Assembly (NCBI GenBank): GCA_036676985.1
Contig: JAKFBU010000041.1
Span: 96,001 to 160,000 of the forward strand
DNA from: Candidatus Sericytochromatia bacterium
Lineage (GTDB): Bacteria > Cyanobacteriota > Sericytochromatia > S15B-MN24 > UBA4093
Length of the DNA: 64,000 nucleotides
Reading direction: 5' to 3'
Shown here: in pieces, positions 1-16,146 of the stretch
Layout of the letters: every line of letters starts with the position of its first letter
Position numbering within the stretch: the stretch's first letter is position 1
Program-made: the position numbers and the translations under genes
Notes under the pieces: generated by a model
What the model was told of the DNA's origin: nothing
The model's input: the letters and a program-made list of their open reading frames with translations, nothing else
Database searches by the model: none

Positions 1-893
1 GGGCCGAAGATGATGACGAAGATGGTCGGGAAGATCAGGAACACCACCGGGAACGTGAGCTTCAAGGCGGCCTTGGCCGCCATCTCCTGGGCCCGCTGCC
101 AGCGCGCCTCGCGCAGCATCTCGCTCTGCGTGCGCAGCGTCTTGGCGATCGACGTGCCCATCGCCTCCGCCTGCACCATGGACACGGCCACCGAGTTCAG
201 CTCCTTGAGACCCGCGCGCTTGCCGAGCTCCCGCAAGGCCTCGGAGCGCGGACGACCGAGCTGGACCTCCTTGAGCGTCCGCTCCAGCTCGTCCCGCAAG
301 GGATGCGGCTTGCCGAGCTCCACGACCTTGGCCATGGAGGCCTGCAACGACAGGCCCGCCTCGACGCAGGTCGTGAGCAGGTCGAGCGTCGTGGGCAGGG
401 CCTTGATGATCTGGTTCTGACGCCGCTCGGTCTGGCTCTTGAGCTGCTGCGGCGGCAGGATGTAGCCGACGAAGACGCAGCCGATGACGCCCGCGATCAC
501 CACCACCACATCCAGCTCCAGGATGAGCCAGTTGGCGAACACGAAGAACACCGGCAGGATGATCGCCCACATGAGCTGCCGTGCCAGGAACTGCGCGGCC
601 GTCGTGCGGTAGTCCCCCGCGGCGTGCAGGTCGCGCAGGATGGAGACCTCCTGCTCGGGCCCCAGGCGCCGCTCGGCCATCGGCTTGAGGTAAGCCTCGA
701 TGACCGTCAGGTACTTGCTCTTGCCCTTGGTGTCCTTCTCTTCGACCTGCTGCTCGAACTGCACGCGGCTCGCGGCCGAGCGGCCCTTCTTGAGGCGCTT
801 CTCGACCTTGGTCTTGCCCTTGGGCTTCGCGAAGGAGAGGACGGCGATGGCGATCGCCGCGACCACGAGCAGGAAGATGAGGAACAACGTCAT
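1..893 (-). CDS. tadC: Tad pilus inner-membrane platform protein TadC (T2SSF family), 3' end beyond window
   Basis: Manual translation from ATG at 893: MTLFLIFLLVV...ALPTTLDLLTTCVEAGLSL...ELERTLKEVQLGRPRSEAL...GTSIAKTLRTQSEMLREARWQRAQEMAAKAALKLTFPVVFLIFPTIF; typical TadC, directly downstream of tadB. Confidence 0.9.
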   Translation of the reverse strand, partial: MTLFLIFLLVVAAIAIAVLSFAKPKGKTKVEKRLKKGRSAASRVQFEQQVEEKDTKGKSKYLTVIEAYLKPMAERRLGPEQEVSILRDLHAAGDYRTTAAQFLARQLMWAIILPVFFVFANWLILELDVVVVIAGVIGCVFVGYILPPQQLKSQTERRQNQIIKALPTTLDLLTTCVEAGLSLQASMAKVVELGKPHPLRDELERTLKEVQLGRPRSEALRELGKRAGLKELNSVAVSMVQAEAMGTSIAKTLRTQSEMLREARWQRAQEMAAKAALKLTFPVVFLIFPTIFVIIFG

Positions 894-905
894 GATCCCG
901 CCCCC

Positions 906-1772
906 CTACACGTCGATGGCCACGATCTTGGAGACCGCGAAGCTGCCGAGGCCGATCATGACGGCACAGAAGCCGACCATGGCCCAGCCCAGGGGGTGCG
1001 TGAACAGGACGCCCATGCGCTCCGGCATGATGACGTAGAGGAGCACGTAGAGGCCCACCGGGAGCAAGGAGAGCACCGTGCCGGACATGCGCCCCTGGGT
1101 GGTCAGCGTCCGGATCTGGCCCTGCATCTTCTTGCGCTGGCGCATGGTTTCCGCGAGGTTGTCCAGGATCTCGGCCAGGTTGCCGCCCGATTGGCGCTGG
1201 ATGATGACGGCGATGCCGAAGATCTCGAGGTCGTCGTTCGGCATGCGCTCGACCCAGTTGCGGATGGCCGCGTCGAGGGCCGTGCCGACCCGCAGCTCGT
1301 GCAGGACCTCTGCCACCTCGCTCGACATGGGGTCGGAGAATTCCTCGACGACGAGCTCCAGGGCCTGCTGAACGCTGTTGCCCGCCTTCACGGCATTGGC
1401 GATCACGCCCACCATGTCGGCGAGCTGCTCCTCGAAGTCCTTGCAGTAGCGGCGCCACAGGACGTTGAGGTACTGGTCCGCGCCGAACCAGCACACCGCG
1501 GCGAACACCGCCGCGATGAAGATCCGGCCGAAGATGCCCTCGCCGAGGATGAGGCCGAAGAGCGCCGCCGACCCCGTGAGGATCTGCTGGAATCGCCCGA
1601 AGCGCTCGGTCGAGAAGGGGTTGCGCGTCTTGCGAAGCCTGTCGCCCACGTCCACCCGGTAGAGCGCCAGGCGATCGGCGATCGAGCCGCCGTACTTCTG
1701 GAACGCCAGGTACGCCATGATGGCCGCCGAGGCGGCAATCAGGAAGACGATGATGAGCAGGCGAACGTCCAT
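906..1772 (-). CDS. tadB: Tad pilus platform protein TadB (T2SSF family)
   Basis: FEEQLADMVGVIANAVKAGNS, IQRQSGGNLAEILDNLAETMRQR, TTQGRMSG motifs; transmembrane segments; operon context. Confidence 0.92.
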   Translation of the reverse strand: MDVRLLIIVFLIAASAAIMAYLAFQKYGGSIADRLALYRVDVGDRLRKTRNPFSTERFGRFQQILTGSAALFGLILGEGIFGRIFIAAVFAAVCWFGADQYLNVLWRRYCKDFEEQLADMVGVIANAVKAGNSVQQALELVVEEFSDPMSSEVAEVLHELRVGTALDAAIRNWVERMPNDDLEIFGIAVIIQRQSGGNLAEILDNLAETMRQRKKMQGQIRTLTTQGRMSGTVLSLLPVGLYVLLYVIMPERMGVLFTHPLGWAMVGFCAVMIGLGSFAVSKIVAIDV

Positions 1773-1777
1773 CGGGC

Positions 1778-2365
1778 CTAGGGCTTCTTGGCGGCGGTCT
1801 CGAGGTAGCCCATCACGCTGGAGCGCAGGGACTCGAACTGACGGCGGGTCAGGTTCTCGTCGGCCTGGAAGGTCCTGTCGGGGAAGCCGTAGAAGATGCG
1901 CCGGGTGGTCAGAAGGTCGATGGCGGCCGCCGTCTCCTGGTCGGAGCTGCGATCGCGGAACTCGCGCGGCACCGTGAGCTTCACGCCGTCGCGGGCGTCC
2001 GACTCGACGAGAGTCACGACGTTGCGTAGGATCTGGGCCGCCTGCAGGCGGGTCACGGGTTTGCTGGGCTCGAAGACGCCGTAGCTGAAGCCGCTCACGC
2101 CCTCGAAGAGGCGATACTTGCTCTCCATCTCGTGAACCGTCTCCTTGAGCGAGCCGCCCAGGTCCATGTACAGGAGGATGCTCTCCTTGGGGCTCTTGAG
2201 GTCACGCTTGAACGTGTCCTCGTAGTGATAGATCCAGCGCGCGACGCTCTGGACGAACTCCCCGCGCGTCACCGGCGCGCTCACGGCGTACTCGGCCGCA
2301 GGAGCCGCCACCGCAGCGGGGGCGACCATCCCGAAACCCAACAGCGCCAAGGCCAACCAACGCAT
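1778..2365 (-). CDS. Secreted SLH (S-layer homology) domain protein within the tad operon
   Basis: Signal peptide MRWLALALLGFGMVAPAAVA; SLH-like motifs PVTRGEF, GVFEPSKPVTRLQAA, FYGFPDRTFQADENLTRRQF. Confidence 0.75.
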   Translation of the reverse strand: MRWLALALLGFGMVAPAAVAAPAAEYAVSAPVTRGEFVQSVARWIYHYEDTFKRDLKSPKESILLYMDLGGSLKETVHEMESKYRLFEGVSGFSYGVFEPSKPVTRLQAAQILRNVVTLVESDARDGVKLTVPREFRDRSSDQETAAAIDLLTTRRIFYGFPDRTFQADENLTRRQFESLRSSVMGYLETAAKKP

Positions 2366-2377
2366 CCAAGTCCTCCT

Positions 2378-4549
2378 CTAGGCGAAGCGCATGCCGCCAG
2401 GCCCGAACTGCAAGCCCACCCGGGCGAACTGGTCCGCGGCATGGGGCACCAAGCCCGTATAACGGAAACTACCGACCACCCGACCCCGGTCGTCGAGGCC
2501 CTCCTGGTCGTAGGCGAACAGGTCCTGCATCACGATGACGTCCCCCTCCATGCCGGAGACCTCGGAGATGCGGACGATCTTTCGCGAACCGTCCTTGAGG
2601 CGGCTGATCTGGACGATCACCTGGATCGCCGAGGCGATCTGCTCACGGATGGCACGGCTCGGCAGCTCGACGCCGCTCATGAGGACCATGGTCTCCAGGC
2701 GGGACAGGGCGTCGCGCGGCGTGTTGGCGTGGCCGGTGGCCAGGCTGCCGTCGTGGCCCGTGTTCATGGCCTGCAGCATGTCGAGGGCCTCGCCCCCGCG
2801 CACCTCACCCACGATGATCCGGTCGGGACGCATACGCAGGCTGTTGCGCACCAGGTCGCGGATGGTGATGGCGCCCGAGCCCTCCAGGTTGGGGGGCCGA
2901 CTCTCCAGCGAGATGACGTGCTCCTGGTGGAGCTTCAGCTCGGCGGCGTCCTCGATGGTCACGATGCGCTCGTCCGCGGGGATGAAGCCCGACAGCACGT
3001 TCAAGAGCGTGGTCTTACCGGACCCGGTGCCGCCCGAGATGAAGACGTTCAGCTTCGCGAGGATCGAGCAGCGCAGGAAGTGCGCCATGTCCTGGTTCAG
3101 GCTCCCGTACTTCACCAGGTCGTCGATGCCGAGCCGGTAGTTGGGGAACTTTCGGATGGTCACCGTCGAGCCCGTGAGCGCCAAGGGCGGCACGATGACG
3201 TTGACGCGGCTGCCGTCCGGCAATCGGGCGTCGCACATGGGCGAGCTCTCGTCCACGCGGCGGCCGATGGGCGCCACGATGCGGTCGATGATGACGCGGA
3301 GCTGCTTCTCGTCGGTGAAGCCGTCCGGCACCCGCGTCAGCTTGCCGCTGCGCTCCACGTAGATCGTCTTGGGACCGTTGACCATGACCTCGGTGACGGC
3401 CGGATCGCCCAGGTACCGCTCCAGGGGGCCGAAGCCCACGGCCTCGTCGGCAATCGCGTTGATGAAGGCGACCCGCTCCTGGCGGCCCTTGAGGGGGACC
3501 TCCTCCATCTGCTCGAGGATCTCGGCGATGACCTCCAGCACCTTGGAACGGATCTCGCCCTTGCGCGCGGGGTCGGCCAGGTACTCCAGGGACAGGTTGA
3601 AGCGCTTGAGGGCCTCCACCAGCTCCTTGTGGACCTCGCGCTTGAAGTCGTCCAACTCGGCGTCCTCGGGCACGCCCTGGTGCGGGACGACGGCCGTGAC
3701 CTCGGTCTCGGTCGCCGCCGGAACCGGAGCGGCGGGAGTCGAGGCGCCCTGTAGGGGAGCCTGCGGGGTCGCGGGGGCGGTCGCCCTTGCGAGCACGCCC
3801 TGGGCGGCGGTGAGCAGGTTGCCCGCGGGCAGGGCCAGGGCCTTGGCGCCCAGTTGCAAGATGCCCGCCGAGACTGGGTGGTTGGGCTGCTTGAGGACGA
3901 TGGGCTCGCCGCGGTTGAGCGAGCTCACGACCGCGCCGCTCGAGGGGATCTGCCCGATGATGGGGCGCTCCAGGTGCTCCTCCAGGTCGTCGGCCGTGAT
4001 CTCGCCGACCGAGCCTGCGCGGTTCATGACCACCTGGATCTTCTCCAGGGGGAAGCGCAGGGCGCGGGCCTGCTCGATGGCGGCCTTGGAGGCGTTGAGG
4101 GTCGTGATGTCGGGCGGCACCACCATGAGCACCACCGAGGCCATGTCGAAGAGCGCCACCATGGCCTCGTGGCCGAGGCTCGGGAAGGTCGTGTCGACGA
4201 TGAGGAGCTCGAACTGCTTGGCCAGATCCCGGGCCATGGCGGCCACGTGGTGGGCCCGCGGGTCCAGGAGGTCCGTGAGCGGCGGGGCGGGCAAGAGCGA
4301 GACGCCCGAGGGATGCGGGGTGAGCACGTCGTCCAGGGACTTGGAGCCCCGGATCACGTCCGCCCAAGAGCCCGGCGCGGGCTCGAGGTCCAGGTACGAG
4401 GCCTGGGATCCGCCGCCCATCCAGTCCAGGTCCCACAAGAGGGTGGGGCGCTTGGTGCGCTTGGCGATCGCCACGGCCAGGTTGCCGGCCGTCACCGACC
4501 GTCCCAGGCCTCCCTTGGCGCCAAAGACCAGAATCAGGCGGCTAGGCAT
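2378..4549 (-). CDS. cpaF: Fused CpaE/TadZ (MinD/ParA-like) - CpaF/TadA pilus assembly ATPase
   Basis: N-terminal GAKGGLGRS deviant Walker A and MinD-like motifs; Ala/Pro linker; C-terminal CpaF motifs [41 protein letters not shown]. Confidence 0.92.
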
Positions 4550-4550
4550 C

Positions 4551-5573
4551 TCACCGCTTCCCGTAGTCGTTTTCGGGCATGGCGTTGGGGTTGGTCACGA
4601 TGGTGGGCGTCAGGAGGAAGACGAGCTCCGTGTGGCTGCCGCGATCGTCATGCGTCTTGAAGAGCTCGCCCAGGAAGGGGATGCTCGACAGCAAGGGGAT
4701 GCCCGAGGTCGTCTCCTCGGTGGTGTCGGAGAGGAGGCCCGCCATGGCGATGGTCTCACCCGAGCGCAGCTGCATGTAGGACTCCGTCCAGCGGGTCGAG
4801 ATAGCGGGCACCGAGATGCCGGAGAGGGTGATGCCGTTCTGGCGGTCGATGCGCGAGACCTCGGGGCGGACGCCGAGCACGATGGTGTCGGCGCCCTCGA
4901 CCCGCGGCGTGACGGCGAGGCGGACGCCGAAGGGCTTCCACTCGATGGTGACGCTCTGGGGCAGGATGATGGGGATGGGGATCTCGCCGCCCGCCAGGAA
5001 GCTCGCGCTCGCGCCGTTGACGGCCAAGAGGGTCGGCTGCGCCAGGATCTTGGCCTTGCGCTGCTGGACCAGCATGTCGAGCTTGGCCTCGATGAGGGTC
5101 TGGCGGGTGGGCAGGCCGATCCGGAAGGGGGCGTTGGGCGGAGCCTCGATCCAGCTGACGGAGTCGCTCCAGTCCACGCCGGCCTTGGCGTCGTCGGCGC
5201 GCACGATCTCCAGCACCTTGACCCGCACGGCCACGGTCTCGGGACGGCGGTTGCTCAAGACCTCGATGTTGTAGTTGCGGACCGGTCCCTGAATGGTGCG
5301 CCCGTCCGGCCCTTTGGTGGGCGAGGGCCACACGAGAAAGTTGGTGAAGCCCGGCTTCTTGGCGCTGATCAGGAGGTCCCGGTTCTGGCCCGAGAGCGGC
5401 TTGGCGTCGATGACCTCGCCGTCGCCCACCGCCACCCGTTCGACCCCTTCGGGAACGGTGTAGACGATGGTCTGGCCCATCCGGATGACGATGTCCGGCG
5501 CTGCTGCCTGGGCGGGCAGGGCCGGAAGCATCAGGAGGAGGGTCAGGATGACGGCGAACCAGGGACGCTGCAC
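4551..5573 (-). CDS. cpaC: Short CpaC/RcpA-type secretin
   Basis: Signal peptide; pilus-formation N domain (RVAVGDGEVID...AKKPGFTNFLVW); secretin core ASFLAGGEIPI, FGVRLAVTP, GIPLLSSIPFLGELFK, ELVFLLTP. Confidence 0.88.
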   Translation of the reverse strand: MQRPWFAVILTLLLMLPALPAQAAAPDIVIRMGQTIVYTVPEGVERVAVGDGEVIDAKPLSGQNRDLLISAKKPGFTNFLVWPSPTKGPDGRTIQGPVRNYNIEVLSNRRPETVAVRVKVLEIVRADDAKAGVDWSDSVSWIEAPPNAPFRIGLPTRQTLIEAKLDMLVQQRKAKILAQPTLLAVNGASASFLAGGEIPIPIILPQSVTIEWKPFGVRLAVTPRVEGADTIVLGVRPEVSRIDRQNGITLSGISVPAISTRWTESYMQLRSGETIAMAGLLSDTTEETTSGIPLLSSIPFLGELFKTHDDRGSHTELVFLLTPTIVTNPNAMPENDYGKR

Positions 5574-5588
5574 GGTGGTACTCCTAGG

Positions 5589-6608
5589 CTACTTCTTGTG
5601 AATGAGCGTCGTGCCGCTGTAGACCTCGATGCCGGGCTTGGGCTCGACAGGCTTCGGCCTGGGCGGCTGGGGCTTGGGGCGCGCCTGGACGACCACGGGG
5701 CGCTCCTTGACGATGACCTTGGTCTGGACGGGTCGCGGCTGCGGGGCCACGGGCCGGGGGATCTTGCCCATCACGTAGCGCACGAGCTCCGCCTCGGGGA
5801 TCTCGGGGGGCGTGACGGTGGTGTCGCCCTGCTCGCGCAACGAGAGGCTCAGGTTGCCCTGCTCCTTGAGGGCGGCGAGCAGCGCCACCTTGTTGGAAGG
5901 CACGGCGAGCGTCAGCAGATCGCCGTAGGCCCCGGCCTCACCCTCGGCCTGGGGCGTCTCGTTGCTGAAGCGGTTGCCGACCGACAGCACGCGCACCCGC
6001 TGGGCGACCTTGGTCGAGAGGAAGCCGGTGTCGGTCTGGATGGTGGCCGTGAGGTCCACGTAGTCGTCCGGCTTGACCAGCGCGATGTCCTGGGCGCCCT
6101 CGGGCACGTACAGGAAGCCGCGTTCGTTGGCCTCCAGCTTGGGGGCCACGCCGGTGGCAGCAGACGCCGGGCCCACGCGCTTCTTGTGCAGGACCTCGCC
6201 CTTGACCACAGGGGCGAGGGTGATCTGGCCGAGCAGCTCCTTGGTGTCGGTGATAGCGCCGTCCGGCAGCAGGCCCTTGGGGAACTTGCGGGCCTCGATC
6301 ATGGACTCGTCGATCTGCTTGCGGGCGGGCAGGTCCTCGAGCGGCACGTAGACCTCGACCTTCTCGCCCTTGCCGGCGATGCCGTCCTCGAGGTCCGAGA
6401 GGTACGTGATGGCGAGCAGTCCCGCCACCAGGGCGATGCCCACCGAGGCGAGCAGCAGCTTTCGGTTGACGTCCATGCCCGCCAGGAGGGACTTGGACTC
6501 CTTCTTCTTGGCGGCCGGGCGCTTCTTGGTCTTGACCGTGCCCTTGACGCCCGAGCGCGCGGGCTTCTCGGGAGGCTGCTCGCGAAGCTTATCGCGTAGA
6601 TTTGCCAT
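5589..6608 (-). CDS. cpaB: Flp pilus assembly protein CpaB/RcpC
   Basis: Single TM, SAF-like segment (DLPARKQIDESMI...PDGAI...GEVL), VKPDDYVDL, RVRVLSVG, LSLSLR; Pro-rich tail. Confidence 0.88.
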   Translation of the reverse strand: MANLRDKLREQPPEKPARSGVKGTVKTKKRPAAKKKESKSLLAGMDVNRKLLLASVGIALVAGLLAITYLSDLEDGIAGKGEKVEVYVPLEDLPARKQIDESMIEARKFPKGLLPDGAITDTKELLGQITLAPVVKGEVLHKKRVGPASAATGVAPKLEANERGFLYVPEGAQDIALVKPDDYVDLTATIQTDTGFLSTKVAQRVRVLSVGNRFSNETPQAEGEAGAYGDLLTLAVPSNKVALLAALKEQGNLSLSLREQGDTTVTPPEIPEAELVRYVMGKIPRPVAPQPRPVQTKVIVKERPVVVQARPKPQPPRPKPVEPKPGIEVYSGTTLIHKK

Positions 6609-6993
6609 GGCTCGCCTCCTCCCTCGATATCCAGACCGTCGTCTTGCGTTCTTTTCCGGCCACCACGACCCTGAGTTGCGCGTCGCCCTGCTCGTAGAGC
6701 AGAAGGGCCAAGGGGACCTTTTCGAGATCCTGGTTGAGGACGTCGTCCGCGACGGCCTCCTGCCACCCGCGCTTCGGCAGCTCGCGGCGGTAGAAGGCCA
6801 CGACCTCCTTCAAGCTCGCTTGCTGGGTCGCGATCGCCTCGGTCCCATTGCCGCGATTAGTGGCGGGACGCGGCTTGGCGCCAGGATACAGCGGTATCTT
6901 ACCCGCCGCAAGGTCTGCCGTCACACCGGCGAGCGACTTGCCGGGCGCCAGAACGAGCACCAGCGCGAGCCCCAGTCCCAACCACCGGTTCAT
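6589..6993 (-). CDS. Hypothetical secreted protein of the tad operon
   Basis: Signal peptide; IPLYPGA...VVAFYRRELPKRGW motif; overlaps both neighbouring genes. Confidence 0.7.
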   Translation of the reverse strand: MNRWLGLGLALVLVLAPGKSLAGVTADLAAGKIPLYPGAKPRPATNRGNGTEAIATQQASLKEVVAFYRRELPKRGWQEAVADDVLNQDLEKVPLALLLYEQGDAQLRVVVAGKERKTTVWISREEASHGKSTR

Positions 6994-7799
6994 GGCGTCT
7001 TTCCCGACAGCGTGTTGCGGATCCAGGGGTTGAGCTCCGAGAGTCCGAACCCTGCTCCGTGCACGGGCAGCTCGCTCGGCATGTAGCCCTCGGCACGCAC
7101 GCCCACCTTGTCCCAGAGCTTGGTGGACTTGCCCGTCACGAGCTTGGAGCCCTCCTCGGCGCCCTTGCCCAGGCCGTCCATCCAGGGACCGCGAGACGTG
7201 ACACGCTGGCCGTGCATGACAAAGCCGATGCCGAACTTGCCCGTGGGGTCCTTGGCCACGTAGGCGCGGCCCATGACGCCGACCGGAATGACCTTGGTCA
7301 GCTGCTGGCGGGGCACGGCCGGCTCGTACCGCCAGGACGGACCCGAAACGTCCACCTTGCGCGACTTGCCCAGGACCTTGCGGGCATATTCGACGCGGGT
7401 GGCGGTGTTGCCCGCCTCGCGGATGATGCCGAGGCCCATGACCTTCTCGTCGGCGGCACCGTCCATGGCGGCGATGGCCGCCTCGCGCGCGGCGAAGCGC
7501 GCCGCGACGACGGCATTCTGGCTCTCGTAGATGGCAAAGCCGATGAACGCCAGGGCGAGCAGGAGGAAGACGAGCAGGGGAATGAGCAGCCCCGCCTCGA
7601 CCATGGCCTGGCCGCGCTGTCTCTTGGCATTTCCCCCCACACGAAAAGCACGCGTCAGCAGGGCGTTTCCGTCACCCCGGCGAAGGCCGGGGGCCAGGGC
7701 ATGCGCCCCGAGTGCCAACCCTGGATCCCGGCTGTCGACGGGATGACGGGCGACGCACGCAACAACGGCACGCCACACGGCGCTAATGCTCCGAGACAA
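6990..7799 (-). CDS. TadE-family pseudopilin (alternative GTG start at 7640)
   Basis: Class III signal KRQRG|QAMVEAGLLIPLLVFLLL with E+5, then AARFAAREAA; TTG at 7799 has GGAGG at 7805-7809. Confidence 0.8.
   Translation of the reverse strand: MSRSISAVWRAVVACVARHPVDSRDPGLALGAHALAPGLRRGDGNALLTRAFRVGGNAKRQRGQAMVEAGLLIPLLVFLLLALAFIGFAIYESQNAVVAARFAAREAAIAAMDGAADEKVMGLGIIREAGNTATRVEYARKVLGKSRKVDVSGPSWRYEPAVPRQQLTKVIPVGVMGRAYVAKDPTGKFGIGFVMHGQRVTSRGPWMDGLGKGAEEGSKLVTGKSTKLWDKVGVRAEGYMPSELPVHGAGFGLSELNPWIRNTLSGKTP
7669..7749. repeat. 81-bp palindromic REP-like element
   Basis: Arms CCGTCACCCCGGCGAAGGCCGGGGGCCAGGG (7669-7699) and CCCTGGATCCCGGCTGTCGACGGGATGACGG (7719-7749) are imperfect inverted repeats, each with an internal hairpin; resembles the widespread GTCATYCCCGCGnAnGCGGGRATCCA repeat type. 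Confidence 0.75.
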
Positions 7800-8667
7800 T
7801 GTTGCCTCCCGCCGCCGGACTGCCGAAGCTACCCTCGTGCTTCTGCCCCGTACGGATGAGCCTGGGGGAGTACCAGCGCAAGCTGCCGGGCCCCAGCTGC
7901 AGCTTCTTGCCCTTGGCCGCGGGGTCCTTCTCGATCTCGTGGCTCGCGGCGTAGCCCGCCGATGCCCACGCCGGCACGTCCACCGGCCCGCCGATGCCGC
8001 CGAAGCCGAAGAACGACCAGTTGAGGCCCTGGTACCGGGGCACGACCTCGATGAAGCTCTTGCCCGCGCCCTTCTTGGGACCGAGCCCCTGGTTGACGTA
8101 GTTCACGTCCGCCACGAAGGAGGACTTGTCGCTGTTCTCGCGGATGGCCCCCGGCGCCTTGATGGCGTTGAAGTTCGCCATCTCGAGGGCCTGCCCCCCG
8201 GCTGCGTGGTCGTTCATCCCCTGGATGTTGGCCACGTAGGCGAGGCGGGCGGCCTCCTCGACGATCTGGGGACCGGCCTGATCGACCCAGGCGTTGTAGG
8301 CCAGCAGGTCCTTGCGCAGGCTCTGGACCCGGCCGATGTACTGCTCCGCCCGGGCGAGGCGCCGGTTGAACTCCGCGTCGTTGTCGAGGTTGCCCATGGC
8401 ATGCATGAGCTCGATGCGGGCCCGCAGGGCCTGCCCGGTCATGGCCACGTAGGCCATCTCGCGCGTGTGGTGCACGCTCACCTTGACCGAGACGGCGGCC
8501 AGGGCCGCGGCATCCGCCGCGTTCTGGGCCCGGATCTTGGCCGTGACCAGCCGCCCCAGGTCGAATAGGGCCAAGAGCACGGTGACGAGCACCGCCATCA
8601 CGAGCGCCACGTAGATGAGCGCTTGACCGGACTCGTCTCTCAGCAGATCGGGACGGCGGGACCTCAT
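7783..8667 (-). CDS. TadG-like pilus tip protein/pseudopilin
   Basis: RDESG|QALIYVALVMAVL...DLGRLV...AQNAADAAALAA Tad N-terminal motif. Confidence 0.82.
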   Translation of the reverse strand: MRSRRPDLLRDESGQALIYVALVMAVLVTVLLALFDLGRLVTAKIRAQNAADAAALAAVSVKVSVHHTREMAYVAMTGQALRARIELMHAMGNLDNDAEFNRRLARAEQYIGRVQSLRKDLLAYNAWVDQAGPQIVEEAARLAYVANIQGMNDHAAGGQALEMANFNAIKAPGAIRENSDKSSFVADVNYVNQGLGPKKGAGKSFIEVVPRYQGLNWSFFGFGGIGGPVDVPAWASAGYAASHEIEKDPAAKGKKLQLGPGSLRWYSPRLIRTGQKHEGSFGSPAAGGNIVSEH

Positions 8668-9623
8668 TTCAGATCCCCCGTGGTGGTGAAGAGCGACATC
8701 TCCATGGCCCGGATGGGCGTCAGGATGACTCCCTCGGCGGTGGTCGCCGCCGTGCGGGCCACGCCCTGCAAGACGGAGATGGCGATCTTGACGGTCGGAT
8801 CCGAGGGCGTCTTCGAGAGGCCCTGCAGGGTGCGCATGGCGCCGGGCGCGAGCTTCATGCTGTTGTAGAGGCGCTCGGAAGGACGCAGGTAGGCCGCCTC
8901 GCCCGGGGCGGTCTCGAGGTCCGACGAGGCGTAGACGGCAGCCTCCGTGCGGCCCACCCGGTAGCGCTCGTCGCGGCCGGGGTTGTCCTGCACGGCCTGG
9001 AGGGGCGAGAAGGTGAACAGGGTGGCCAGACCCTTGACGCTGTCGGGCAGGGGCAGGGACTGAACCTGACTTGCGGCCCGCTGGAGGCCCCCCAGGTAGA
9101 CGTTGAGGCCCGGGATGTCGATGGGGTAGTTGACGATGCCGTTGGCCGGGTACTGCGCGGCCGACTTGGCGCCCCGACCCTGCACGTATTCGCGGTTGAC
9201 GACGATGGAGGCGCCGATCTGTCCCTTGCCCTGGCTGCCGCCGCCCCCGAAGGCCGCGAGCATGTCGCCGAGGGAGGTCTCCTTCTTGGTGACCTGGACC
9301 CGGATGGCACGGTCGGCGGCCTCGGTCTTGACGTCCAGCTTGCCCTCGGAGCCCGAGACCACCTTGCCGATCCAGGGCTGCTTGGAGTCCTCGGAGTAGG
9401 CGCGCATGACCTCCTGGGCCGCGAGACTCGGGTTGTTGCCCTCCTTGCCGCCCACGGTCGCGGCGCGCGCCGCGAGGAAACCCGCCCCGGAGAGGATGAT
9501 CTGGCGCTGCAGGAAGACGCCGAGCTCGATGGTCCCGATGGTCAACAGCAGGAGCATGGGCAGGATGATGGCGAACTCCGCCATGGTCTGGCCCTCTTCG
9601 CGCCGCCGTAACTGCCGGAGCAT
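8664..9623 (-). CDS. TadE-family pseudopilin
   Basis: Start MLRQLRRREEG|QTMAEFAIILPMLLLL...AARAA; AGGAGG SD upstream of ATG 9623. Confidence 0.82.
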   Translation of the reverse strand: MLRQLRRREEGQTMAEFAIILPMLLLLTIGTIELGVFLQRQIILSGAGFLAARAATVGGKEGNNPSLAAQEVMRAYSEDSKQPWIGKVVSGSEGKLDVKTEAADRAIRVQVTKKETSLGDMLAAFGGGGSQGKGQIGASIVVNREYVQGRGAKSAAQYPANGIVNYPIDIPGLNVYLGGLQRAASQVQSLPLPDSVKGLATLFTFSPLQAVQDNPGRDERYRVGRTEAAVYASSDLETAPGEAAYLRPSERLYNSMKLAPGAMRTLQGLSKTPSDPTVKIAISVLQGVARTAATTAEGVILTPIRAMEMSLFTTTGDLK

Positions 9624-9625
9624 CG

Positions 9626-10165
9626 CTAACCTCCTGAGAAGCTCAAGAGGTGCGGGTAGAGCATCGCGCAGAGGGTGCCGGCGGCGATCGCCACGCCATA
9701 CGGAAAAGGCGGCAGCGCGCTCTTGGAGAGCATCGCCTCGGGCTTGGCCCCGGGGGTGAACATGGCCAGGAGGAAGTAGTAGAGGTTGCGCAGCACGGAC
9801 CACAGGGCGCCGTAGCGCAGGGCGAACAGGAGCGCGATGATGCCGCCGGCGAGGGCCACGTCGATCATGGCCACGATGATGAGTGGATAGCCGAGCCAGG
9901 TGCCGATGGCCACCATGAGCTTGAGGTCGCCCGCCCCCATTTTGGCGAAGAGGTACAGGAGCAGGAAGACGACCGCCGCGAGGCCGCCGCCCGCGAGGCT
10001 GCTCAGCAGGCCCGGCACGCCGCCGAAGACGACGCTGAGCAGCAGGCCCAGCCCCATCGCGGGGAAGGTGAGCCAGTTATAGATCCGGTGCCACCGCATG
10101 TCGGTATAGACGGCGATCATGAGCACCGGAAGCAGGGCCCATTGCCAGACGGGGATCGAACTCAT
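9626..10165 (-). CDS. cpaA: Prepilin peptidase CpaA/TadV (A24)
   Basis: YTDMRWHRIYNWL, MGAGDLKL, FPYGVAIAAG motifs. Confidence 0.92.
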   Translation of the reverse strand: MSSIPVWQWALLPVLMIAVYTDMRWHRIYNWLTFPAMGLGLLLSVVFGGVPGLLSSLAGGGLAAVVFLLLYLFAKMGAGDLKLMVAIGTWLGYPLIIVAMIDVALAGGIIALLFALRYGALWSVLRNLYYFLLAMFTPGAKPEAMLSKSALPPFPYGVAIAAGTLCAMLYPHLLSFSGG

Positions 10166-10199
10166 GTGCAGGTACCAACCCTAGAAATGAAGACAAGAA

Positions 10200-10258
10200 G
10201 GCCCTCGCCTGCGATACCATACCCCGCTGGGGAGGCGGTATCACGCTAGGCGAGGGCC
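10200..10258 (-). terminator. Long hairpin between flp and cpaA (attenuator or pilin mRNA stabiliser)
   Basis: GGCCCTCGCCT-GCG-ATACC ... GGTAT-CACGC-TAGGCGAGGGCC inverted repeat. Confidence 0.6.
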
Positions 10259-10272
10259 TGAGAGCGTTGTGG

Positions 10273-10452
10273 TTAGATGCCCTTGCTCAGCGCATCGACC
10301 TTGTCGGCGAGCTTCTTGACCATGCCGTTGACCTTCTCACCGAGGATCTTGTAGGTACCGGCGCAAACGAGAGCCACGACGGCGATGATCAGGCCGTACT
10401 CGACCATCGACTGACCTTCCTCTTCGCGGACAATCTTCTTCAAAAGTTCCAT
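10273..10452 (-). CDS. flp: Major Flp pilin (59 aa)
   Basis: MELLKKIVREEEG|QSMVEYGLIIAVVALV Flp motif; GGAGG SD. Confidence 0.93.
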   Translation of the reverse strand: MELLKKIVREEEGQSMVEYGLIIAVVALVCAGTYKILGEKVNGMVKKLADKVDALSKGI

Positions 10453-10499
10453 CGTGGTAATCCTCCATCTGAACCGTTTGGGAAACTCCTCACACAAGG

Positions 10500-10552
10500 G
10501 TTATAGGGAGGTCCCCAGCGGATCCGGTAAGATTTACTTGAAGCTTACTTTA
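10500..10552 (-). promoter_or_regulatory. Putative flp promoter with an upstream 11-bp-spaced direct repeat
   Basis: Minus-strand TATAAC at 10505-10500; TTTACTT (10533-39) and CTTACTT (10544-50) in an AT-rich gap. Confidence 0.45.
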
Positions 10553-10579
10553 AAACGGGGCTAAATCGATCGCGAAGGC

Positions 10580-10942
10580 TCAGCGGGCGCGCATGAGGGC
10601 CTTGGAGTGGTGGCCGAAGGACAGGCCGAAGGCGCCGCCCAGCAGCTTGATGGACACAATCAGGCCCAGGGCGAGGGATCCGGCGATGAGGGCGTACTCG
10701 AGGGTGCTCTGGCCATCCTCGTTCACCAAGATCTCGCGCAGGAGGGCCGACGTTTCACCCCCCCTCCCCCCCCTGCTTCGCAAGGGGGGCACAGGGCGCC
10801 CTGCTTCGCAGGGATTGAAAGCGGGATCAGCAACGCTCGTGTCGCCCACAATAAACAACCCCCTGCGAAGCAGGGGGAAGTCCTCGTGCCCCCCTTGCGA
10901 AGCAGGGGGGGAAGGGGGGGTAGAACGAGTCACCACCCCCAT
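10580..10942 (-). CDS. Second Flp pilin with a repeat-expanded leader
   Basis: C-terminal LLREILVNEDG|QSTLEYALIAGSLALGLIV; ATG lies 2 nt after the upstream stop codon. Confidence 0.8.
   Translation of the reverse strand: MGVVTRSTPPSPPASQGGHEDFPLLRRGLFIVGDTSVADPAFNPCEAGRPVPPLRSRGGRGGETSALLREILVNEDGQSTLEYALIAGSLALGLIVSIKLLGGAFGLSFGHHSKALMRAR
10751..10927. repeat. MITE/REP-like palindromic element, copy A
   Basis: Terminal inverted repeats ACCCCCCCT(T/C)CCCCCCCTGCTTCGCAAGGGGGGCAC; inner inverted repeat CCCTGCTTCGCAGGG/CCCTGCGAAGCAGGG. Confidence 0.9.
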
Positions 10943-10944
10943 GG

Positions 10945-11442
10945 TTATTGCCCCGTCGACACGATCGGCACGTACAGCGTCAGGCTCGTGGGATAGTTGG
11001 CGTCGTCCAGGCCCATGAGCGTCACGGTCGCCGTGACGCTCCGCTTGGCCTTCAGGGCGTCCACCACCGACTGATCGACGATGGGCAGCACCGCCTTGCC
11101 CGTGCCCGCCACGAACTCCAGATCCTGGGTATTCGTCAATGACTCGCGCGGGTACTTCTTGAGGTACGTGGGCTCGACCCGCAGGCTCATGGCCATGCTC
11201 TTGTTGCCGATCCCCGAGTCCCCGTCGTACTTGATGTCCGCGCGGCCAAAGGTCGCGCCGAGCGACCCGTTCTGGCCCTGCACCGTCACCGTGGGATTTG
11301 TAAACGTTGCCTTGGAGCCCTCGATGGTCACCTGCACCGTCGCCGGCTCGATGTTCGTCACGCTGAGCTGCGCCGGCACGTTGGTGTACCAGCCGCAGCC
11401 ACTGAGGGCCGCCAACACCGCCAGGATCCCGATCCGTTTCAC
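10945..11442 (-). CDS. Lipoprotein of unknown function (possible pilotin or accessory protein)
   Basis: MKRIGILAVLAALSG|C lipobox; AGGAGG SD; beta-rich sequence. Confidence 0.8.
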   Translation of the reverse strand: MKRIGILAVLAALSGCGWYTNVPAQLSVTNIEPATVQVTIEGSKATFTNPTVTVQGQNGSLGATFGRADIKYDGDSGIGNKSMAMSLRVEPTYLKKYPRESLTNTQDLEFVAGTGKAVLPIVDQSVVDALKAKRSVTATVTLMGLDDANYPTSLTLYVPIVSTGQ

Positions 11443-11472
11443 GATCCGCCTCCTAGGTTAGGTCGCCGAATG

Positions 11473-12558
11473 CTAGCTCGAGTACGAGCCGCTGCCGTGG
11501 AAGGCTCCGCGCATCATCCGCTGGAGCTCGTTGGGGTTCTCCGAGTACGACAACGCGTCGTCCAGGGAGATCTGGTCCTCCTGGTACAGGTTGAAGAGCG
11601 CCATGTTCATGCTCTGCATGCCGTCCATCTGGCCCTGCTCGATGACGTGCCGCAGGCCGTCCAGGTCGTTCTTGAAGACCAGGTCCTGCACCGTCGGAGT
11701 CGAGACCAGCACCTCGACCGCCGCGCGGCGGCCCCGGCCGTCGCCCTTGGGGATCAAGCGCTGCGAGATGGCCCCACGCAGGATGGCGCCCAGCTGGTGC
11801 CGGATGTTGTCCTGCTCGTGCGGCGGGAAGGTCGAGATGACGCGCGAGACCGTGCCCACGCTGTCCGTGGTGTGCATGGTGCTCATGACCAAGTGGCCCG
11901 TCTCCGCCGCCTTGACCGCCGCGAGGATGGTCTCCTGGTCACGCATCTCACCCACCAGGATGACGTCCGGATCCTGACGCAGCGCGTACTTGATGGCGTT
12001 GGGGTAGGTCAGGGTGTCCGCGCCCAGCTCGCGCTGGGTGATGACCGACTTCTTGCTGGTGTAGACGAACTCGATGGGGTCCTCGATGGTGAGGATATGG
12101 ACGTCCTTGGTCGTGTTGATGAACTCGACCATGGCCGCGAGCGTCGTCGACTTGCCCGAGCCCGTGGGGCCCGTGACGAGCACGAGGCCCTGGCGCTCGA
12201 GGGCGAGCTTCTTGATGACCGGCGGCAGGTCCATCTGGTCCACCGCGGGCGGCTTGAGGGGGATGACGCGGAAGGCCGCGCCGATGTTGCCCTGCTCGAA
12301 GTAGACGTTCACGCGGAAGCGCGCGAGCCCGTCGATGGTCAAGCTGATGTCGATCTCGCGGTTCTGCTCGAACAGCTGGCGCTGCTCGGTGTTCATCAAG
12401 CTGTAGAGCGCCTGGCGCGTGTCGGCGGGGGTCAGCGTCTTGTACTCGGTCGGGACGATGCGACCGTCGATGCGCAGCACCGGCGAGGTGCCCACCTTGA
12501 CGTGGATGTCCGACGCGCGCTTCTGAACCGCGGTGCGAAGAAAGTCGATGATATTCAT
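11473..12558 (-). CDS. pilT: PilT/PilU-family type IV pilus retraction ATPase
   Basis: ASDIHVKVG, RFRVNVY, GPTGSGKSTTLAAM, TIEDPIEF, ALRQDPDVILVGEMRD, AAETGHLVMSTMHT, GMQSMN; true start MNIIDFL at 12558. Confidence 0.93.
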   Translation of the reverse strand: MNIIDFLRTAVQKRASDIHVKVGTSPVLRIDGRIVPTEYKTLTPADTRQALYSLMNTEQRQLFEQNREIDISLTIDGLARFRVNVYFEQGNIGAAFRVIPLKPPAVDQMDLPPVIKKLALERQGLVLVTGPTGSGKSTTLAAMVEFINTTKDVHILTIEDPIEFVYTSKKSVITQRELGADTLTYPNAIKYALRQDPDVILVGEMRDQETILAAVKAAETGHLVMSTMHTTDSVGTVSRVISTFPPHEQDNIRHQLGAILRGAISQRLIPKGDGRGRRAAVEVLVSTPTVQDLVFKNDLDGLRHVIEQGQMDGMQSMNMALFNLYQEDQISLDDALSYSENPNELQRMMRGAFHGSGSYSS

Positions 12559-12578
12559 GCGCGGATGATCGTCCTGTC

Positions 12579-13163
12579 TTAAGCGTTGGTCGCGGGGGCG
12601 GCCTGCGCCAGCTGCGCGAGCGGGAAGCCGACAGCGCGGTTGAGGATGCGCTGGATGTCGAACAGGTTGCGGATCGCGTCGGGGGCGGTGGTCTCCGAGA
12701 GCCACGTCTCGACGATCTGGCCCTTGTCGTCCAGGAAGGTAACGGTCATCGCGAGGTTGCTCGGCAGGAACTTGCCGGGCTGCACATTCTTGATCTCGTC
12801 CATGGCGGGCGGATCGTACTTGAGGTTGACCTCGCCGACCGTGTGGATCTTCTTCTTGCGGAAGGTGTGCGACTTGGGGAACAGGTTGATGAAGATGAAG
12901 TACGCCGAGGTCACGAGGATGACCTCGCAGGCGTAGAAGCTGCCGCCCTGCTCGCCGGGCTTGGAGGTCGTCGCCTCGAACTGGTAGTAGCAGCCCAGCA
13001 CGCGATCGGCCGGGTGGATCGTGTCGTACAGGATCTGGAGCAGGATCTGGCCCACGCCGGGGACTCCGCTCGCCTTCTTCATCAACTCCTGCATGCGCGG
13101 GTGATTGAAGGCATTGGCCTGGGGAGGCTGCTGGGGCTGCGACGACACGGTTTCTGCGCTCAC
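12579..13163 (-). CDS. Hypothetical cytoplasmic protein, first gene of the pilT unit
   Basis: GTG start with GGAGG SD; host-like codon bias; 20 nt upstream of pilT. Confidence 0.75.
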   Translation of the reverse strand: MSAETVSSQPQQPPQANAFNHPRMQELMKKASGVPGVGQILLQILYDTIHPADRVLGCYYQFEATTSKPGEQGGSFYACEVILVTSAYFIFINLFPKSHTFRKKKIHTVGEVNLKYDPPAMDEIKNVQPGKFLPSNLAMTVTFLDDKGQIVETWLSETTAPDAIRNLFDIQRILNRAVGFPLAQLAQAAPATNA

Positions 13164-13305
13164 GTTACCCTCCGCGCGGCAGGATGCGGCTCCCGCCTCA
13201 ACTCGAGTTTGCTTGGACGGTGCTATTGTACCCCGGCGCTTGAGCCCCTAACGATCGTCAGGTGCTGGCGCGGCGGGGGGCTCTGGCGCATGGTCCGACG
13301 GCTCT

Positions 13306-13454
13306 ACCCCCCCATCCCCCCCTGCTTCGCAAGGGGGGCATAGCGAGTCCTGCTGCGCAGGATTGAAAGGCAAGAGCGCGCTATCAATCCGGCCCGGCTC
13401 TGCCGGGTCCAGTCCCTAAGCCCCCCTTGCGAAGCAGGGGGGGAAGGGGGGGGT
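13306..13454. repeat. MITE/REP-like palindromic element, copy B
   Basis: Same CCCCCCCTGCTTCGCAAGGGGGGC / GCCCCCCTTGCGAAGCAGGGGGGGAAGGGGGGG ends as copy A. Confidence 0.9.
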
Positions 13455-13467
13455 CGAAAAGCAGCAA

Positions 13468-14565
13468 CTACTTCGTGAGCACGACCTCGTCGAACATCTT
13501 GCCCTCCTTGTCGATGGCCTTGAGCGTCAGGCGGTTGCCGTCCATCTCGGCGGCCATGAAGTGGTAGGCGTCCTTGTAGATCGAGGGCTTGTTCTTGTCC
13601 TGGAACTTCTGACGGCCCGGGCGCAGCCAGGCTCCGCCGCCGCCCGTGATGAGGTAGCGCGTGCCCGCGATGGGGTTCAAGAAGCGCTCGTAGTTGTGCT
13701 CGTGCCCGTTGACGTAGAGATCCACCCCGTACTTCTGGAACAGGGGCTGTACCCGGCTGCGCAGGAAGGCCTTGCCCCCGTCCGCGCCGTTGGAGTAGAA
13801 GGGATGGTGGCCGTAGACGACCTTCCAGGTGGCATTCGAGGAGGCGAGGGCCCGCTCGAGCCAGGCGACCTGGGGGGTGCCGGCCTTCATGAAGTCCCGG
13901 TCGGTGGTGTCGATGGCGAAGAACTCGGCCTGACCCCAGCGGAAGGAATAGTAGCGCTCGGTGCCGCTGGCCTTGGCGGGCAGGTCGAAGGCCCGCAGGT
14001 ACGCGGCCCCCTTCTCGGCCTTCACGTCATGGTTGCCGAAGACCGGGTAGACGGGCGCGTTGGCGCTGATGGGCGCGAACGGCTTGAAGAACCGCCCCGG
14101 ATAGAGCCGCTCCTCGCCGTCGTCGTAGACCACGTCCCCCGTGTGCAGGACGAACTCGGGCTGGTAGGCCGCGAGCCGCTCGGCAATCGCCTTCTGATTG
14201 GCGTTGCCGCTGCCGGTGTCCCCGACGATGGCGAAGCGCGCCTTGCCGGAGCCCGCGGGCGGCGTGCGGAACGTGCCCTCGGCCACGACGCGATCGCCCG
14301 ACAGCAGCTGGTAGGGAACGGCCGTCCCGGCCGGCAGGCCCGTGAGCTGGACGTTGTGGTGCGTCGTCGCCGCGAGCTCCTTGACCGTCCGGCTGTTGGC
14401 GTAGCGCACCTGGCCGATGCCGGCCTCGTCCGTGCGCCACATGAGGATCGCCGACGAGGTCGTCACGTTCTGGACGTACGGCTTCACGGTCAGCGTCTCG
14501 GCCAGGGCGGGAGACGCAAGGGCGATCGCGAGCACGGCCGCGACGGAGTACGAAAGACGGGTCAT
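13468..14565 (-). CDS. Secreted metallophosphoesterase (purple acid phosphatase-like, FN3-like N domain)
   Basis: GDTG, HTGDVVY, GNHD, GHHP, GHEHNYER motifs; signal peptide. Confidence 0.9.
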   Translation of the reverse strand: MTRLSYSVAAVLAIALASPALAETLTVKPYVQNVTTSSAILMWRTDEAGIGQVRYANSRTVKELAATTHHNVQLTGLPAGTAVPYQLLSGDRVVAEGTFRTPPAGSGKARFAIVGDTGSGNANQKAIAERLAAYQPEFVLHTGDVVYDDGEERLYPGRFFKPFAPISANAPVYPVFGNHDVKAEKGAAYLRAFDLPAKASGTERYYSFRWGQAEFFAIDTTDRDFMKAGTPQVAWLERALASSNATWKVVYGHHPFYSNGADGGKAFLRSRVQPLFQKYGVDLYVNGHEHNYERFLNPIAGTRYLITGGGGAWLRPGRQKFQDKNKPSIYKDAYHFMAAEMDGNRLTLKAIDKEGKMFDEVVLTK

Positions 14566-14643
14566 CACTACCTCCTGGGGACGGGACCTACCAACCCGCA
14601 CAGCTTACCGCCAACCTCGGCGCCTGTCACCCCTCATGACGAA

Positions 14644-14740: not shown

Positions 14741-16039
14741 CTAAGACCGGAGCGCGCCCTCGCGCTGCGGCTCGGCCTTGAGGACCGCGACACCGCGCAT
14801 GTAGGGCCGCAGGGCCTCGGGCACCACCACCGAGCCGTCGGCCTGCTGGTAGTTCTCGAGGATGGCCGCCACCGTCCGGCCCACGGCCACGCCCGAACCG
14901 TTGAGCGTGTGCGGGTTCATGAGCTGCTTGTCCCGGCGGAAGCGGAGGCCGCCGCGCCGCGCCTGGAAGTCGGTGCAGTTCGAGCAGCTCGAGATCTCGC
15001 GGTACTTGCCCTGGGCGGGCATCCAGACCTCGAGGTCGTAGGTCTTGGCCGAGTTGAAGCCGACGTCCGCCGAGCAGAGCAGGATCTTGCGGTAGGGCAG
15101 GCCCAGGCGCTGCAGCACGGCCTCGGCGTTGGCCGTCATCTTCTCCAGCTCGTCGAAGGAGGTCTCGGGCGACACCACCTTCACCAGCTCGACCTTGTCG
15201 AACTGGTGGACGCGGATCAGGCCCTTGGTGTCGCGGCCGGCGGCCCCCGCCTCCGAGCGGAAGCAAGGCGTGCCCGCCGTGAGGTGCATGGGCAGCATGT
15301 CCTCGTCGATGATCTCGTCCCGGTACAGGTTGGTGAGGGGGACTTCCGCCGTCGGGATCAGGTAGTACTTGGTGCCCTCGAGCTTGAAGAGCTGATCCGC
15401 GAACTTGGGCAGGTTGCCGTTGGCGAGCAGCGTCTCCTCGTTGGCGACGTAGGGGGGCTGCACCTCGGTGTAGCCGTGCTCGCCCGTGTGCAGGTCCAGC
15501 ATGAAGTTGATGAGCGCCCGCTCGAGCTGGGCGCCAGGGCCGCGCATGAGCGTGAAGCGGGTGCCCGCGAGCTTGACCGCGCGCTCGAAGTCGATGATGC
15601 CGAGGGCCTCGCCCAGCTCCCAGTGAGCCTTGGGCTCGAAGCCGAACGCGGGCACGTCGCCCCAGCGCACGACCTCGACGTTGTCGTCCTCGCTCTCGCC
15701 GTCCGGCACCGACTCGTCCAGCAGGTTGGGAATCTGGTACATGAGCTCGGTGCGCCGGGCCTCGATGTCAGACATCTGGGCCTCGAGGGCCTTGATCCGC
15801 TCGCCGTTGGCCTTGACCGACGCGATGACCTCGGAGGCGTCCTGGCCCGACTTCTTGAGGGCGGCCACCTGCTCGCTCGCCTGGTTGCGCTTGGCGCGCA
15901 GGTCGTCGAGCTCGGTCTGGGTCTCGCGGAACTGCTGGTCGAGCTGCTGCAACGCGCTCAGGTCGAAGGCCATGCGCCGCCGCTGGAGGCTCTTCTCGAC
16001 GCGCTCGGGCTCTTGCCGGATCAGCTTGATGTCTAACAC
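14741..16039 (-). CDS. serS: Serine--tRNA ligase
   Basis: GTG start VLDIKLIR; [56 protein letters not shown]. Confidence 0.97.
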
Positions 16040-16146
16040 GGGATCGCTCCTTGTCAATTGGCGTGAATGTCCTAGTATATCGTGGCGAGGGAAGGCACGC
16101 CAACTTGCTTCACACCACCCCCCTGCATGCATCCCGGGAGGCTTCG

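Follow-up and report, generated by a model that had tools for sequence, protein, structure and literature searches.

We asked whether a retraction ATPase of the PilT family, encoded at the head of a Tad (Flp) pilus gene cluster, serves that pilus or a different machine. The locus lies in a 64,000-nt stretch of DNA (the window) that covers positions 96,001 to 160,000 of contig JAKFBU010000041.1 from a non-photosynthetic cyanobacterial relative, a Candidatus Sericytochromatia bacterium (assembly GCA_036676985.1; genome G000); coordinates below are those of the window. A sequence-only reading had proposed either a hybrid Tad machine with a dedicated second motor or the co-regulation of two pilus systems. 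Our results indicate that the ATPase is probably a PilT2/PilU-like motor that assists the retraction of type IVa pili, and that its operon likely captured the first genes of the Tad cluster. The observations that carry this reading are the family membership and motifs of the ATPase, the gene order in 40 genomes, the position in the tree, the type IVa set found elsewhere in the genome and the retraction-face residues of the Tad motor CpaF. Each part of the locus belongs to a known kind, and the evidence favours adjacency over partnership.

The ATPase (361 aa) scored 457.3 bits against TIGR01420 (cut-off 319.1) and lacks the N1 domain of PilB. Its catalytic boxes were all intact: Walker A (GPTGSGKST), the Asp box (TIEDPIE), Walker B (RQDPDVILVGEMRD) and the His box (STMHT). 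The replacement of AIRNLIRE by TVQDLVFK, pointed out from the sequence, was confirmed, since in solved PilT structures the aligned segment is the AIRNLIRE helix; the canonical motif is thus missing here and is present as AIANLIRE in a paralogue on contig C26 of the same genome. The protein also carries a conserved C-terminal RGAFHG tail. For Vibrio, the available part of bioRxiv 10.1101/2025.10.30.685630 places AIRNLIRE, by modelling, at the PilT-PilC interface and describes a PilU that has no AIRNLIRE and works through PilT via its C-terminal tail. The window ATPase shares with the PilU of Vibrio, Pseudomonas and Acinetobacter its membership in TIGR01420, the lack of AIRNLIRE and a conserved C-terminal tail. 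It differs in that it falls outside the gammaproteobacterial PilU clade (100/100 separate), has a short tail, and is flanked by a gene for a predicted pleckstrin-homology (PH)-like protein and a lipoprotein gene instead of by pilT.

Two trees were built, a quick tree of 75 rows and a bootstrapped tree of 57 rows from which PilB outgroups, four long plasmid rows and redundant rows had been removed and to which four rows had been added. Orthologues linked to the seryl-tRNA synthetase gene serS formed one clade in both, roughly tracking the host families (93.8/100), and their weakly supported sister group included second PilTs from the small-genome family f9 (apparently Vampirovibrionia), which share a C-terminal G.FHG tail. 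A wide clade in the 57-row tree united the serS-linked PilTs, the f9 PilTs, the paralogues on contigs C48 and C51 of G000 and the Pro-rich cyanobacterial PilT2 (96.5/97; Shimodaira-Hasegawa-like approximate likelihood ratio test/ultrafast bootstrap, SH-aLRT/UFBoot). The AIxNLIRE-bearing PilT1 (C26) and gammaproteobacterial PilU fell outside this PilT2-like clade, and the window ATPase neither groups with canonical PilT1 nor lies in a pilB-pilT-pilC locus. The PilT/PilU phylogeny speaks against the idea of a dedicated Tad motor, as the ATPase groups with PilT paralogues of its own genome and with cyanobacterial PilT2. The loss of AIRNLIRE was common to the whole clade, in Tad-linked and unlinked lineages alike, and the number of alignment columns diagnostic for the six genomes in which pilT runs into the Tad machinery was 0.

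Like cyanobacterial PilT2, with which it shares the wide clade, the window ATPase lacks AIRNLIRE and is encoded away from pilB and pilC, with a canonical pilBTC locus elsewhere in the genome. Unlike the PilT2 sequences compared, it has no Pro-rich N-terminus, which the available part of PMC12288463 gives as a mark of cyanobacterial PilT2, and it has the RGAFHG tail and ties to serS and the PH-fold gene. A PilU-like function of PilT2 is suggested in the same source. Sericytochromatia have one more PilT clade (L143-L146), whose AIRNLIRE helix contains an insertion and whose Asp box reads LENPVE. A frameshift near residue 130 splits the pilT orthologue of G010 (L052); cpaE/F and tadB of this genome are likewise in fragments, which probably reflects sequencing errors.

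The genes and elements of the region are listed below, with domain calls by Pfam/NCBIfam.

14741..16036, minus strand, serS, seryl-tRNA synthetase (Pfam tRNA-synt_2b and Seryl_tRNA_N), head of the class-wide serS-PH-pilT block
13468..14601, minus strand, metallophosphoesterase gene (Pfam Metallophos), between serS and the PH gene
13303..13452, no strand, intergenic copy of an element with terminal inverted repeats
12579..13163, minus strand, 194-aa protein with a predicted bacterial PH-like fold, adjoining pilT upstream
11473..12558, minus strand, PilT/PilU-family ATPase of the PilT2-like clade, 361 aa (TIGR01420, 457 bits)
10945..11442, minus strand, 165-aa lipoprotein with invariant Cys16 and a predicted beta-sandwich
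10580..10942, minus strand, Flp-type pilin A (flpA), likely minor pilin (Flp_Fap 18.8 bits, below cut-off)
10751..10927, no strand, 177-nt repeat element in frame with the flpA leader (terminal inverted repeats of 42 nt)
10273..10452, minus strand, Flp pilin B (flpB), likely major pilin (Flp_Fap 26.4 bits, below cut-off)
9626..10165, minus strand, cpaA/tadV prepilin peptidase (Peptidase_A24)
8664..9623, minus strand, TadE-like pseudopilin (PF07811)
7783..8667, minus strand, TadE/G-like protein (PF13400)
6990..7799, minus strand, TadE-like pseudopilin (PF07811 at residues 63-105; true start probably further downstream)
6589..6993, minus strand, 134-aa secreted-type protein without a Pfam match, conserved in Tad clusters of families f1 and f3
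5589..6608, minus strand, cpaB/rcpC (TIGR03177 above cut-off)
4551..5573, minus strand, cpaC/rcpA secretin (Secretin and T2SS-T3SS_pil_N)
2378..4549, minus strand, CpaE(TadZ)-CpaF(TadA) fusion, 723 aa
1778..2365, minus strand, SLH-domain protein (PF00395), at this position only in G000, G001, G003, G006 and G009
906..1772, minus strand, tadB/cpaG platform (single T2SSF domain)
1..893, minus strand, tadC/cpaH platform, 307 aa, ending just outside the window (T2SSF)

The sequence-only reading had described a minus-strand unit of four genes, from the PH gene to flpA with gaps of 20, 30 and 2 nt, running into the order flp-cpaA-tadE-tadG-tadE-cpaB-cpaC-cpaE/F-SLH-tadB-tadC. Its coordinates and gaps proved correct and the order was borne out by the domain calls; the 134-aa gene at 6589-6993, between tadE and cpaB, was missing from its list. 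The Tad parts recognised were the Flp pilin, TadV, RcpC, RcpA, TadZ, TadA, TadB, TadC and TadE/G, and no TadD/CpaO or RcpB was recognised in the Tad run of the window.

We then compared gene neighbourhoods across the class, with host families denoted f1-f7 and f9. A pilT orthologue (60-97% identity) was present in 41 of 47 genomes, G000 counted, and 40 of the 41 loci were read (G043 was left out). Five of the six pilT-negative genomes were tested for serS; it was missing from the same five, which points to assembly gaps, and in the sixth genome a piece of the upstream gene lies at the end of a contig. The PH gene lay directly upstream of pilT in 40/40 loci, preceded by serS in all 37 loci with room (three contigs end too soon), so that in relatives the unit does not start at 13163; serS overlaps the PH gene in several f6/f7 genomes. 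The metallophosphoesterase gene splits the serS-PH junction in G000 only, beside the repeat element, and serS and pilT are 3.5 kb apart in the window compared with about 2 kb in relatives.

On the downstream side, 38 loci were informative, two contigs ending inside pilT. The lipoprotein-flp pair followed pilT in 16/38 genomes (f1, 8/8; f2, 1/1; f4, 7/7), families that belong to one order, and in 0/22 genomes of f3, f5, f6 and f7. The run continued into cpaA-cpaB in only 6/38 (G000, G001, G003, G004, G007 and G026), so a stable linkage of pilT to the Tad machinery was not found; it reached the motor gene in G000, G003, G004 and G007 and probably in G001 (contig end), and broke after cpaB in G026. 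The machinery was detached in nine of the 16 junction genomes (G002, G005, G008, G012, G014, G016, G018, G020 and G027), standing on another contig or about 20 kb off and inverted, with G010 undetermined, and about 1 kb is inserted between pilT and the lipoprotein gene in G018 and G010. The lipoprotein gene accompanies the first flp, and in f3 it accompanies the complete Tad cluster: there, the lipoprotein-flp-...-tadC cluster was intact without pilT in 5/5 fetched loci, and in G023 (f3) it was rearranged, again without pilT. For f5-f7, lipoprotein-flpA stood alone in 5/5 genomes checked and cpaE/F alone in 6/6. Among 45 PilT matches from a plasmid collection, eight loci were opened and six were annotated; all six had type IVa-type or pilT-pilU neighbours and 0 Tad genes.

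These results show that the four-gene unit is the junction of two independently conserved blocks, [serS]-PH-pilT and lipoprotein-flp. The proposed pilT-flp-tad synteny is real and inherited in f1/f2/f4, and is absent in 22/22 genomes of the other four families, with the Tad machinery detached in part of the former. The further claim that the link goes beyond adjacency because the unit ends in a Flp pilin did not hold, as lipoprotein-flp is a block of its own that occurs pilT-free in f3 and f5-f7. The junction required one change on the PilT tree and two on the SerS tree (30 rows each), the two trees disagreeing on the placement of f3, so that one gain and a gain plus a loss both fit. Two side observations concern the f3 loci L058 and L060-L063: a gene judged by eye to be lexA-like precedes the lipoprotein-Tad cluster in divergent orientation, and a fliD-like gene stands downstream of pilT. 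The Tad genes of f5-f7 are scattered over the chromosome; multi-locus Tad systems are called very rare in the available part of PMC6668835.

Because the adjacency is inherited in 16/16 f1/f2/f4 genomes, pilT is likely co-transcribed with the first two Tad-associated genes. One rearrangement in the ancestor of f1/f2/f4, or of the order, probably put lipoprotein-flpA-flpB-tad behind pilT, and the 30-nt gap would then probably have let the serS-PH-pilT transcript capture lipoprotein-flpA. Such read-through capture is proposed as the reason why the pilT-lipoprotein junction held while the flpA/flpB, flpB/cpaA and cpaB/cpaC junctions broke repeatedly. A sigma-70 promoter scan was uninformative, with 0 matches within the unit and 2 sites near 16050-16100 against 0.7 expected.

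The same pattern could reflect selected co-regulation, in which a shared transcript of the pilT block and the Tad head would make type IVa retraction power change in step with the supply of Tad minor pilin and lipoprotein, the motors staying separate. The survival of the pilT-lipoprotein-flpA junction across three families while downstream junctions broke, together with gaps of only 30 and 2 nt, argues for it. We nevertheless consider it unlikely, since 22/22 other genomes retain both systems but lack the junction, a housekeeping gene, serS, stands at the head of the block, the insertion of about 1 kb in G018 and G010 separates pilT from the lipoprotein gene, and passive promoter capture accounts for the pattern equally well.

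The favoured reading, an accessory type IVa motor, calls for a type IVa system in the same genome, and G000 was found to encode four TIGR01420 members above cut-off, five PilB/GspE-type ATPases, three two-domain PilC-type platforms and three TadB/TadC pairs, the last corresponding to three Tad loci. A canonical pilB-pilT-pilC locus lies on contig C26, and pilD-pilM-pilN-pilO lies on contig C6 with a secretin match downstream. The separate type IVa set that had been suggested as a check is thus present, so that a spare PilT has a complete type IVa system at hand. Two further type IVa/type II secretion system (T2SS)-like clusters of G000 (C63:157-12021 and C76:42929-52596) contain PilB, PilC, a secretin and pilins without PilT, and are possible clients of the three unlinked PilT paralogues.

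On this basis a working model can be outlined. By analogy with PilU, the window ATPase, lacking AIRNLIRE, would probably have no platform grip of its own and would stack on the canonical PilT1 encoded on C26, perhaps via the conserved RGAFHG tail, adding force under load. The PH-fold protein, a candidate partner, would probably act as adaptor or localiser of this PilT. CpaF is predicted to power both extension and retraction of the adjacent Tad pilus.

Several findings weigh against this account of an accessory type IVa motor. The sister relation to the f9 sequences is weakly supported (84.1/77), and the wider PilT2 clade is an open fork in the 75-row quick tree. The pilT-lipoprotein junction held in every one of the 16 informative f1/f2/f4 genomes. 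Both systems are near-universal in the class (pilT 41/47, cpaF 45/47, tadB 44/47, cpaB 46/47), and presence or absence within it therefore cannot separate them; this test was dropped, the apparent losses also coinciding with missing serS. The Tad genes of f5-f7 are scattered anyway, so their separation from pilT tells less. Eight PilT columns separate f1+f4 from the rest, compared with 0 in SerS; shared ancestry would explain these columns just as well, and residues 290-296 contain none of them.

We next considered whether the Tad pilus needs a second motor. Tad systems are reported without PilT in the available parts of PMC6668835 and PMC6920026; the former describes no PilT orthologue in the Caulobacter Tad system, and the latter has CpaF drive both directions in Caulobacter. 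The available part of bioRxiv 10.64898/2026.02.24.707734 ties retraction to CpaF P386/R387, the beta13-14 turn and a C-terminal motif, and states that some CpaF orthologues have lost the retraction residues. Such decay would be expected here if the Tad system had handed retraction to PilT. Aligned to Caulobacter crescentus CpaF (E 1e-125), the window CpaF retains PR at 386/387, RLKDGSRKI at the beta13-14 turn and an intact C-terminal stretch, as in a self-retracting CpaF. PR was present at the P386/R387 positions in 28/28 orthologues read, and the two other CpaFs of G000 keep only the Arg. The window shares with the C. crescentus Cpa/Tad system flp, cpaA, tadE/G, cpaB, cpaC, cpaE, cpaF, tadB and tadC along with these CpaF features, and differs from it in the fused CpaE-CpaF, the extra lipoprotein, the 134-aa protein and the SLH protein, and in the pilT gene upstream of the Tad cluster, which is also seen in some relatives. 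Open frames of about 720-760 aa show the CpaE-CpaF fusion across the class, also in genomes where the gene is isolated. The fusion bears on the ATPase-inversion model; no description of it was found in the open-access literature listing.

Genomes with related ATPases were also informative. No CpaF-level match was found in four PilT2-bearing genomes, and a fifth genome (G130) has CpaF and shows only a PilT1-type PilT. The five f9 genomes (99% complete) with a related second PilT have only two-domain PilC-type platforms, and their weak CpaF-like match (read in 2/5) lacks the Walker B and His-box residues. A cpaE-like gene accompanies this degenerate cpaF in f9 (L175:5161-7752 and L176:5450-7983), where no TadB/C was found; the pair is possibly a relic or repurposed.

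These data bear on the hybrid machine, in which PilT would dock on TadB/TadC, or on inverted CpaF in the manner of PilU on PilT, and act as a second, stronger Tad retraction motor, the pilT-Tad adjacency being the visible trace of the partnership. The gene is contiguous with the Tad motor gene in G000, G003, G004, G007 and probably G001, both systems are kept vertically across the class, the AIRNLIRE helix, a predicted PilC contact, is altered, the CpaE fusion might hinder CpaF inversion, and G000 has four PilT paralogues for three PilC platforms. We still regard such a machine as quite unlikely: the CpaF retraction-face residues are kept throughout the orthologues, related ATPases are retained in genomes in which no TadB/C was found, the motif changed before the adjacency arose, the linked genomes carry no sequence signature, linkage to the machinery was lost repeatedly (9/16), and the reports cited above give no PilT in Tad systems. 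Of the original hybrid-motor proposal, the adjacency stands as real and inherited; the motor itself is weakly supported, as linkage and phylogeny turned out, in part or in full, in the way that speaks against it. Little credence is likewise given to a class-wide two-motor Tad system in which the CpaE-fused CpaF would be assisted by the AIRNLIRE-less PilT, recruited via a PH-fold adaptor, and in which the neighbouring gene positions in a single order would be what is left of this partnership.

The 194-aa protein upstream of pilT was examined through an AlphaFold2 model (19-row alignment; predicted local distance difference test score 84). Its best fold match among 48,161 chains was the PH protein Exig_2160 (PDB 3b77; Z 8.8, root-mean-square deviation 3.5, 121 aligned), to which it is only 5% identical; eukaryotic PH domains followed (Z <= 5.8), and a 'YokE-like PH domain' cluster is among its Atlas neighbours (0.94). 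The predicted model shows a PH beta-sandwich with a capping C-terminal helix, the Z of 8.8 being modest. The protein had no Pfam/NCBIfam match, including none to Pfam bPH, and a profile search retrieved 62 homologues, the named ones all of this lineage. As the one invariant neighbour of this pilT, it is the best candidate partner. Complex prediction of the PH protein with PilT scored 0.00 in two runs and was used neither for nor against this. We consider it very improbable that the PH protein and the ATPase form a regulatory or non-pilus module with no direct mechanical role, such as signal-dependent motor sequestration, because the catalytic motifs of a retraction ATPase are all intact and the f9 relatives have no PH gene beside their second PilT, even though the PH gene is the only invariant neighbour (40/40), overlaps serS in some genomes, and pilT2 mutants retain pili and competence according to the available part of PMC12288463.

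If the accessory type IVa motor is the correct reading, the gain is modest: the pilus toolkit is charted for an uncultured class that is sister to the cyanobacteria, a PilT2-like paralogue becomes a core gene in Sericytochromatia, and this poorly understood paralogue receives a candidate partner in the PH-fold protein. The reading also cautions that 'pilT next to tad' can be a two-block junction. A hybrid, if true, would break the rule of one bidirectional Tad motor, provide a natural test of platform choice by PilT-type motors and count as the first Tad machine with two motors. Searches of open-access literature listings turned up neither an account of pili in Sericytochromatia nor one of a Tad locus that has a PilT of its own.

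The remaining results concern the genes that follow pilT. The lipoprotein could not be assigned as a pilotin or as TadD: 19 orthologues matched no Pfam family at cut-off, Foldseek returned only generic beta-sandwich matches (template modelling score about 0.35, root-mean-square deviation about 10), and the Atlas clusters were unnamed. Both Flp open reading frames score below the Pfam Flp_Fap cut-off (18.8 and 26.4 vs 32.2 bits), yet a Flp-type processing site (GQS.xEY) is present in each, and each has conserved orthologues. The 177-nt repeat element at 10751-10927 lies in frame close behind the start codon of flpA (10580-10942) and supplies 59 of its 120 codons; G000 holds 17 paired copies of this element family, of 127-191 nt. 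Orthologues of flpA encode 54-65 aa, and those of G004 and G007, without the element, encode 57-aa prepilins that start right behind the lipoprotein stop. The flpA ATG aligns with the start in these two genomes, which rules out the 2-nt gap as an artefact of the repeat element; flpA is a real gene and the gap is real. A different, 139-nt version occupies the same flpA site in G001 (L035), also in frame. The insert would fall in the leader that is cut off. In-frame palindromic insertions have reportedly been described in Rickettsia, and the insertions seen here are reminiscent of them. On the coding strand the element bears a terminator-like hairpin (10877-10859), which could tune flpA expression. 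The flpB gene lies behind a 127-nt AT-rich gap, which could hold a promoter of its own, and has its own ribosome-binding site. In G004 (L036), four near-identical tandem flpB copies with 1.0-1.8 kb spacing lie between flpA and cpaA.

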